Assembly (NCBI RefSeq): GCF_988242995.1
Contig: NZ_OZ547043.1
Length of the DNA: 64,000 nt
Strand: one strand, 5' to 3'
Shown here piece by piece: positions 60,201 through 63,200 of this stretch. The position numbers were made by a program. Position 1 is the stretch's first letter. Every line of letters begins with the position of its first letter.

Positions 60201-63200
60201 GGATCAGTGCCGGACCAGGGCGATTGATGATTTCCTGCAATGCAGCCTGCGGATCGGCTTCGTTATTCAAATCACAGGTTTCGAGGCCGAATCCGGCGGC
60301 AATTTGCATAAAGTTGATTTTGCCCGGATAGGTGGCAGCAAAAACGCCCTGCTTGTAGAACAGACTCTGTTGCTGATGCACCAGCCCCAGCGCTTCGTTG
60401 TTCATCAGAATGATTTTGACATCCAGCTGGTTTTCGCTGGCGGTCGCCATCTCCTGAATATTCATCATCAGGCTGCCGTCGCCGGAGAAGCACAACACTT
60501 TGCGATCCGGGTTCGCCAGCGCCGCGCCAATCGCCGTAGGCAGGCCAAAACCCATCGTGCCCAGCCCACCGGAGGTCAGCCACTGGCGTGGGCGATTGAG
60601 CGGATAAGCTTGCGCGGTCCACATCTGATGCTGACCCACGTCGGTGGTGATAATCGCGCTGTCATCGACACAGGCGGCAACGGCGTTGATCAGGCCGTAA
60701 TGGCTTAACGGATCGCACGCTTTCGGGATTGGACACGGGAATTCGCGCTGCAAATCCGCTACCAACTGGTGCCACTCTGCACGCGGTTGCGCTTCCACCA
60801 GCGGGATCAACTGCGCCAGCACGTCATCAACATCCGCCTGGATCGCCACATGTGGCTGCTTGATTTTGCCCAGCTCTGCGCGGTCGATATCGACATGAAT
60901 AATTTTGGCATTCGGACAGAACTGCTCGGTTTTGCCAATCGCCCGGTCATCAAAACGCGCACCGAGCACAATCAGCAGATCCGCCTCCTGCAAAATATAG
61001 TTGGTGCTGCGCACGCCGTGCATCCCCAACATACCCAGCGACAACGGATGCGCTTTTGGCAACATGCCCAGCGCCATTAAAGTCATGGTGGTAGGCAGTT
61101 GCGCTTTCTCCGCCAGTTCACGCACTCGCGCAGGCGCATTGATCACACCACCGCCCAGATAAAGCACCGGGCGTTTGGCAGCATTAATCATTGCCGCTGC
61201 GTCACGAATGCTTTCTTCGCTAAAGGCGGGCGCGACGGCTTTTTCTGCCACCGCGGGCTGTGCTTCAATCTCAAAAACCGCCGTTTGCACATCTTTAGGA
61301 ATGTCTATCCACACCGGGCCAGGGCGGCCTGATTGCGCAATACGGAAGGCATCGCTCATGACCTGCGGGAGTTCTTCGATATGTCTGACCAGATAGTTGT
61401 GTTTGGTGATGGGGATAGAGATGCCGTAGGTGTCGACTTCCTGGAAGGCGTCGGTGCCAATCATCGAGGCGGGAACCTGACCAGTGATGCAAATCAGCGG
61501 GATGGAGTCCAGCCGTGCATCGGCAATGGCGGTCACCAGGTTAGTCGCACCCGGCCCGCTACAGGCCATACAGACCGCCGGTTTACCGTCGGTGCGCGCC
61601 ATTCCCTGAGCGATAAACCCCGCGCCCTGTTCATGGCGAGCCAGAATATGGCGGATTTGCGTGCTTTGGCTTAAGGCATCGTAAACAGGCAGGATAGAAC
61701 CGCCCGGAATGCCCGTCACAATCTTAATGCCCTGCTGTTCCAGGAAATGAACGATAAATTCTGCGCCGGTAAAGCGCTTACGCGTCGATGTTGTGCCCGA
61801 ACTTGCCATGCTCCAGTCCTTTTCTTCTGGGCCGACTTTCCGGGAGGTGCTTAAACGAAAAACCCCGCCCGGTTTGCGCCGGCGGGGTTTTGGAATCGTG
61901 TGTTGTTCCAGTCCCTACGGCGCATTGCCGACGACCACCACCACACGCACGACGACCACTGCGGCGGATGGCGCAGTTGGTAGTAGTTTTGCGTTGAGCA
62001 TGGAAGTAGTCATTGGGGACCTTGTTGGTTTTGTGTTTAACAATATTTATACAAGCACAGCTTTACAGGGGAGACAATGGAAAATTTTTCAGCAAGGGAA
62101 AATTGAGGGGTTGATCACGTTTTGTACTGTACTGCAGGTAACAAAAAACCCCGCCGGAGCGAGGTTTCGTCAGCCGCCCGCGGCTGGTAACCGCAAAGCA
62201 CACTGTATTATGTCAACACAGAAAGTATACGTGTTCCGCGCAGAACGCGCAATTTCGGCACGAATTTTGACGTAATTAGTGCATAGTTGAGTATCGATCA
62301 CAGTTTGCGTTTTGTCCAAACATTACTGTTTATTCATACAGTAAACTTCTATAATATCACTGTACGCAATGTGTTATGCGGGGGCCGCATCGTTACCCGG
62401 CGCACTAAGTCCTGGCTGAAACGGGTGGTGCCGTCAGCGCCTTAACCCCGCGTGAGCACACTGTGTTATGTCAACGAGCACAACGTTTCTCCTTGAGATA
62501 CCGCGTGCACAACAGCTGGCAACAGGCAGCGGAAAGGTACGTCAGCTGGCAGTGCTCCTGAACCACAGGAGACGCGTATGAGCCTGGTGGATATCGCCAT
62601 TCTTATCCTCAAACTCATTGTTGCAGCACTGCAACTGCTTGATGCTGTTCTGAAATACCTGAAGTAATTCAGATTCAAGTCGCACCAAAGGGGAGCGGGT
62701 AACCGCTCCCCTTTCATATTTAGCGTGCGGGTTGGTGTCGGATGCGATGCTGATGCATCTTATCCGCCCTACCATCCCTCCCGGCAACATTTATTGCCGC
62801 TTTTGTTTACATATTCTGCCGCTAAACAATTCCCCATTCCTGGCGTATATCTGGCTAACATTTATCAATGTGATAGATTCCTCTCCCGCATTTATGGGAA
62901 TGCGTAGTGACTTATTCTAATTATTTTTATAAAAGCATCCGTGATAATGAAAAGGCATAGAAACGTCAATTTGTTATTGATGTTGGTATTACTCGTGGCC
63001 GTCGGTCAGATGGCGCAAACCATTTATATTCCAGCTATTGCCGATATGGCGCGCGATCTCAACGTCCGTGAAGGGGCGGTGCAGAGCGTAATGGGCGCTT
63101 ATCTGCTGACTTACGGTGTCTCACAGCTGTTTTATGGCCCGATTTCCGACCGTGTGGGTCGCCGACCGGTGATCCTCGTCGGAATGTCCATTTTTATGCT

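Follow-up and report, generated by a model that had tools for sequence, protein, structure and literature searches.

The 64,000-nucleotide stretch of DNA analysed here (the window) carries at positions 62143-62714 what is, with very little doubt, Escherichia coli's canonical chromosomal locus for the type I toxin-antitoxin pair tisB/istR-1, with Ser2 of TisB (codon AGC) as the ancestral and majority state and Asn2 of strain K-12 (codon AAC) as a derived minority state. The locus, the exact TisB protein and the Ser/Asn polymorphism have all been catalogued before, and nothing about them is new here.

The toxin gene tisB was located at 62578..62667 on the plus strand, as an ATG-initiated ORF of 29 codons for a 29-aa membrane toxin, the translation of which in the ORF list is MSLVDIAILILKLIVAALQLLDAVLKYLK; its second codon, AGC, specifies Ser, and the G at 62582 defines the allele. 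The product is identical to K-12 TisB at 28/29 residues. As a hydrophobic peptide of roughly 29 aa scoring above the curated cut-offs of all three family models, the NCBIfam equivalogs NF011340 (69.9 bits, cut-off 53) and TIGR04459 (61.5 bits, cut-off 38) and Pfam PF13939 (37.6 bits, cut-off 25), it belongs to the TisB family. These scores also rule out a pseudogene or a non-tisB ORF. At the protein level there is no difference from WP_000060506.1 (MSLVD...; UniRef A0A024LAK6, 'Enterobacteriaceae'), the accession under which tisB is annotated by RefSeq in E. coli strains MEI003 and ESBL 15, and translation of the MEI003 gene gave the same 29 residues. In the protein collection, entries from Shigella sonnei and E. 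coli with the MSLVD... sequence carry the name TisB, and the sequence occurs on at least 1000 contigs. The charge-zipper model, attributed to Steinbrecher et al. 2012, gives functional importance to five charged or polar residues, D5, K12, Q19, D22 and K26. All five are unchanged in the TisB of the window.

The tisA reading frame (62468..62581, plus strand, 37 codons) precedes tisB, and its TGA stop overlaps the tisB start codon (ATGA); in K-12, tisA has been reported not to be translated. The Shine-Dalgarno sequence of tisB, AGGAG, lies at 62567..62571 (plus strand) and was predicted by ViennaRNA to pair with CUCCU at 62555-62559, its mean unpaired probability being 0.13-0.18 in the folds computed. 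The ribosome binding site of tisB has been described as structurally sequestered (PMC7708055), and the predicted fold of the window matches this description. The tisAB transcript probably ends at a likely intrinsic terminator at 62687..62714 (plus strand), GGGGAGCGG-GTAA-CCGCTCCCC followed by TTT, in which a GC-rich hairpin of 9 pairs is extended to 11 bp in the minimum-free-energy fold by flanking A-T pairs. This hairpin was not reported by the consensus terminator scan because its T-run has only 3 T. The same hairpin is kept in K-12 and in Citrobacter sp. FP75.

The antitoxin gene istR is encoded divergently, on the minus strand. Rfam RF01400 matched 62143..62272 over the full model (1-130) with 147.5 bits, the gathering score being 45, and an E value of 9.9e-32; this match covers the IstR-2 body including IstR-1, and the true 5' end of IstR-2 is probably about 10 nt further upstream, near 62283. 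A terminator-like hairpin with a U-run was found by a scan at 62148-62160 in istR. IstR-1 itself, read from the sequence, is the 3' 75 nt of the match (62143..62217, minus strand) and starts with GUUGACAUAAUACAGUGUGCU. Its 75-nt length and its 5' end GUUGACAUAAUACAG are those reported for IstR-1 (Vogel 2004; Darfeuille 2007). The 5' 21 nt of IstR-1 (62197-62217) are antisense to the tisAB mRNA, the target site being at 62455..62475 (plus strand) in the 5' UTR. Comparison of the target AGCACACTGTGTTATGTCAAC with AGCACACTGTATTATGTCAAC at 62197-62217 revealed one transition, so that the duplex has 20 Watson-Crick pairs and a single G.U wobble. The end of the target is 103 nt from the tisB AUG. 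The arrangement is thus that of a toxin-antitoxin system of type I, with a divergently encoded IstR sRNA and a complementarity of about 21 nt located about 100 nt 5' of the tisB ribosome binding site. In addition, a sigma-70-like promoter (TGGACA, 17-nt spacer, GATACT) was detected by a consensus scan at 62290..62318 on the minus strand, with 9/12 matches; it is placed to drive istR-2, a function that we infer from its position. Compared with K-12, istR has two transitions at 62174 and 62179 (minus strand), where the RNA has G here and A in K-12; in the Rfam structure both change a U-A to a U.G pair in the central IstR-1 stem-loop, and the structure is preserved.

Between the two genes, and adjoining this putative istR-2 promoter, lies a LexA (SOS) box, TACTGTTTATTCATACAGTA, at 62324..62343, common to the tisAB promoter and the istR-2 promoter divergent from it. 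No other site in the 64-kb window matches TACTG-N10-CAGTA perfectly. The box has the features of an SOS operator, being a 20-bp palindrome with perfect arms and an AT-rich spacer, located 6 nt 5' of a TATAAT at 62350..62355 (plus strand). This hexamer was read from the sequence and is invariant in K-12, MEI003, ESBL 15 and Citrobacter sp. FP75; it is presumably the -10 element of the tisAB promoter, as assigned in the literature. Two identical 20-mers (TAATGCTGGCAGTGACAGTA) at 41073-41092 and 41364-41383, 291 nt apart, also match the LexA pattern with one mismatch. They lie within a 24-kb stretch that is partly annotated in matching genomes as an inverse autotransporter adhesin (iatC) or an Ig-like-domain protein, and probably represent internal tandem repeats and not SOS boxes.

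The gene order around tisB is ilvB-ivbL-[istR/tisB]-ysdE-emrD. On the left, translation of 61915..62013 (minus strand) gave the ilvB leader peptide IvbL (MTTSMLNAKLLPTAPSAAVVVVRVVVVVGNAP), which serves as a synteny marker; on the right, translation identified the small ORF ysdE at 62791..62865 (minus strand), and emrD starts at 62947 (plus strand). The offsets of ivbL, ysdE and emrD equal those in the annotated records of K-12 and MEI003. It has been reported that tisB/istR is always positioned between ilvB and emrD (PMC9040746), and the flanks of the window, ivbL/ilvB and ysdE/emrD, agree with this rule.

In K-12 MG1655 the tisB/istR-1 locus (tisB b4618, istR) occupies the same chromosomal site, ilvB-ivbL / istR-tisAB / ysdE-emrD, and shares with the window the LexA box, the -10 hexamer, tisA, the overlapping ATGA, the 29-aa tisB, the terminator, IstR-1/IstR-2 and the 21-nt antisense target. 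The original prediction that the locus was otherwise conserved thus held for its architecture but not for its exact sequence, which differs from K-12 by 13 SNPs in 621 bp (97.9% identity). Besides Asn2 in K-12 versus Ser2 here, the differences include T in K-12 versus C here at position 12 of the LexA box, the two U-A to U.G changes in the IstR stem, and, directly 3' of the IstR-1 target, a tisA codon changed synonymously from ACA to ACG. By comparison of the sequences, none of the 13 SNPs breaks any known element. The closest relative at this locus is E. coli MEI003 (NZ_CP071263.1), identical at 620/621 bases (99.8%) including Ser2 and all IstR positions; its sole difference is a T at the equivalent of 62335, where the window has C. 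For the 24 kb of window 40001-64000, the best match among complete RefSeq E. coli genomes reached only 98.6%, compared with the 99.8% to MEI003 over the 621-bp tisB locus. This contrast indicates, at the level of sequence identity, that the source lineage has no close representative among complete RefSeq E. coli genomes, and that the region may be mosaic. About 1070 of the 5426 complete E. coli genomes gave no megablast match to the locus, in keeping with a published report that phylogroup B2 has lost tisB/istR (PMC9040746).

Literature knowledge, applied to the coordinates of the window, would give the following mechanism. LexA bound to the box at 62324-62343 would repress both the tisAB promoter and istR-2. 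Upon DNA damage LexA would be removed, and the tisAB transcript would then be processed to its active form, which would be translated via a ribosome standby site because structure hides the ribosome binding site of tisB. IstR-1, constitutive and 75 nt long, would pair with the 21 nt of the 5' UTR at 62455-62475, block binding at the standby site and trigger cleavage by RNase III. Inserted in the inner membrane, TisB would dissipate the proton motive force and promote dormancy.

The difference at codon 2 was then traced through other genomes and proteins. The original prediction had read MSLVD... from the tisB ORF and given MNLVD... for K-12, and both readings are confirmed: at the syntenic position of RP437, a K-12 derivative, tisB encodes MNLVD..., so K-12 does have Asn and not Ser at position 2. 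The sole coding difference in tisB from RP437 is AGC here versus AAC there, owing to the G at 62582. The comparison with tisB of other E. coli, which the prediction had proposed, was run on 5426 complete E. coli genomes by megablast with 37-mers centred on the SNP; these are allele-specific, since a central mismatch leaves no 28-base seed. The AGC (Ser) 37-mer was found in 3339/5426 genomes (3299 of them exact) and the AAC (Asn) 37-mer in 1004/5426. The tisB/istR locus occurs in 4358/5426 genomes, and the two alleles together cover 4343 of these (3339 + 1004), the counts missing genomes with a second SNP near codon 2. Complete genomes are a non-random sample containing many K-12 laboratory derivatives, which if anything raises the Asn count. 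The Ser allele is carried by O157:H7, B-lineage and ST38 strains, among others, and 5 of the 10 Asn-allele matches listed come from K-12, its derivatives or strains used for conjugation in the laboratory.

The same distribution was seen beyond E. coli. In a 15-billion-protein collection the Ser2 and Asn2 forms of TisB fall in one cluster, in which 14 of the 15 members read have Ser2, including those of Citrobacter koseri, C. cronae, Salmonella enterica and Shigella sonnei, and Asn appears only in the K-12 form. At the DNA level, a scan of species-representative genomes revealed AGC as codon 2 in the loci of Citrobacter sp. FP75 and E. coli SCPM-O-B-8794. Both NCBIfam models score the Ser form marginally above the Asn form. 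Since Ser2 is in the majority in E. coli, occurs in Citrobacter, Salmonella and Shigella, and is encoded by AGC in two outgroup-like loci, the sequence comparisons identify Ser2 (WP_000060506.1) as the ancestral majority allele and the K-12 form as carrying a derived S2N change. The 'N2S substitution' of the original prediction is therefore a real residue difference with its polarity reversed: it is an ordinary standing polymorphism viewed from the K-12 side, and neither a strain mutation nor an error.

Whether this polymorphism could be functionally meaningful was considered from two sides, removal of the N-terminal Met and the helix holding the AUG. Methionine aminopeptidase removes the initiator Met when the residue at position 2 is small; Ser permits this and Asn does not. 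By this rule, which is established knowledge, Met may be cleaved from Ser2 TisB to leave a 28-aa toxin starting with Ser, and Asn2 TisB may keep its Met, so that the mature toxins may differ by one residue. On the RNA side, G62582 was predicted to pair with C62614, lengthening the AUG-holding helix from 4 to 5 base pairs in the +1 mRNA, the +42 mRNA and a local fragment. With AGC in place of AAC and no other change, ViennaRNA predicted the mRNA to gain 3.8 kcal/mol in stability, and the mean unpaired probability of the AUG in the three contexts to be 0.08-0.11 with AGC versus 0.32-0.34 with AAC. The translation initiation region with AGC is thus predicted to be more closed than that of K-12. 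Citrobacter sp. FP75 has the same pairing partner, CUCAU; however, these bases belong to the Leu13-Ile14 codons, and their conservation is therefore no proof of a structure. Moreover, position 2 is outside the charge-zipper residues named above, all of which are intact, and both alleles occur at high natural frequency, which suggests that the Ser2/Asn2 difference is near-neutral. On these grounds, and with the RNA part resting on computed folds, a functional role of the polymorphism is considered rather unlikely, and we retain the reading of Ser2 as an ordinary ancestral allele. In a full-text search of a literature library the MNLVDIAIL form was found in two papers and the MSLVDIAIL form in none, and whole TisB peptide sequences gave no match. 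Four TisB protein variants are mentioned in PMC9040746 and are not listed in its supplements.

The second difference of interest is in the LexA box. The original prediction correctly placed tisB downstream of such a box, which begins exactly where that prediction began its interval; its description as 'consensus' is right for the perfect TACTG and CAGTA arms but overlooked a rare change in the spacer. Compared with the K-12 box TACTGTTTATTTATACAGTA, the box of the window has T-to-C at 62335 (box position 12), giving 3 spacer mismatches to the idealised TACTG(TA)5CAGTA instead of the 2 of K-12. In 37-mer searches, which miss genomes with a second nearby SNP and thus give lower bounds, the C allele was found in 1/5426 complete E. 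coli genomes, ESBL 15 (NZ_CP041678.1), which has different flanking SNPs, and the T allele in 3606/5426. The state is also T in the loci of Citrobacter sp. FP75 and E. coli SCPM-O-B-8794. Both the rarity of C and the T of these two loci would fit a change that weakens LexA binding enough to alter basal or induced expression of tisAB and istR-2.

The strength of the operator was assessed by the heterology index. The tisB box of K-12 has been reported to have the lowest index among LexA-controlled genes (PMC9040746), and the C at 62335 would therefore cost it the top rank. In a home-made index of the Berg-von Hippel type, rebuilt from the 18 K-12 boxes that PMC3009722 lists and with absolute values not comparable with published ones, the K-12 tisB box has a value of 0.7-2.0 (rank 1st to 3rd) and the box of the window 2.6-3.2 (5th or 6th of 19), an increase of 1.2-1.8 units. 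This rise speaks for some weakening, but the variant box still has a better index than the recA, sulA and lexA boxes. Furthermore, 62335 is within the AT-rich spacer and the CTG/CAG arms are intact, the half-site TACTGTATGA, read on the istR strand, is identical to the recA half-site, and the sulA and ftsK boxes carry C at the equivalent position (table of PMC3009722).

The variant box also occurs in other bacteria. A scan of species-representative genomes with the 20-mer (TACTGTTTATTYATACAGTA) gave listed matches that include LexA boxes belonging to beta- and gamma-proteobacterial genes with no relation to tisB and are thus not tisB-specific. The exact C-variant 20-mer was found in at least 14 other species-representative proteobacterial genomes, compared with about 0.5 occurrences of any one 20-mer expected by chance in both strands of 298 Gb. 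In Vibrio breoganii, for example, it lies 19 nt upstream of a SulA-like gene, and in Pseudomonas asturiensis 16 nt upstream of a radical-SAM gene; it likely serves other Proteobacteria as an SOS box. For the K-12 box, binding of LexA and induction by DNA damage have been demonstrated (PMC3159453). Judged by its index and its arms, the box of the window is almost certainly still a strong LexA operator, with a modest change in LexA off-rate as a possible consequence of the C. A base-call error at 62335 is also possible. Altogether, a weakening large enough to change expression of tisAB or istR-2 would, on this sequence-level evidence, be distinctly unlikely.

A sequencing or assembly error at 62582, a read error that the original prediction had raised as an alternative and that has nothing in its favour except the single-base difference from K-12, can be discarded as practically impossible, since the 37-mer is matched exactly in 3299 independent complete genomes and AGC is also present in the loci of Citrobacter sp. 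FP75 and E. coli SCPM-O-B-8794. Ser2 therefore stands as a genuine allele.

Taken to its furthest, the comparison would make K-12 TisB the atypical allele. The majority Ser2/AGC form would lack the initiator Met and have a tighter start-codon helix, the rare LexA-operator SNP of this strain would slightly loosen the tightest SOS operator, and jointly they would shift the threshold of TisB-dependent dormancy relative to K-12. We regard this combined proposal as very improbable. The biophysical work found in the literature rests on K-12 TisB, and conclusions drawn from the K-12 peptide and mRNA strictly cover about a quarter of those E. coli that carry tisB in the complete-genome set searched. 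The rare SNP in the LexA box provides a natural single-base operator variant in the spacer of the strongest SOS box. Were position 2 or the AUG-proximal base pair of consequence, the commoner form of the toxin would be slightly different in behaviour from that of K-12.
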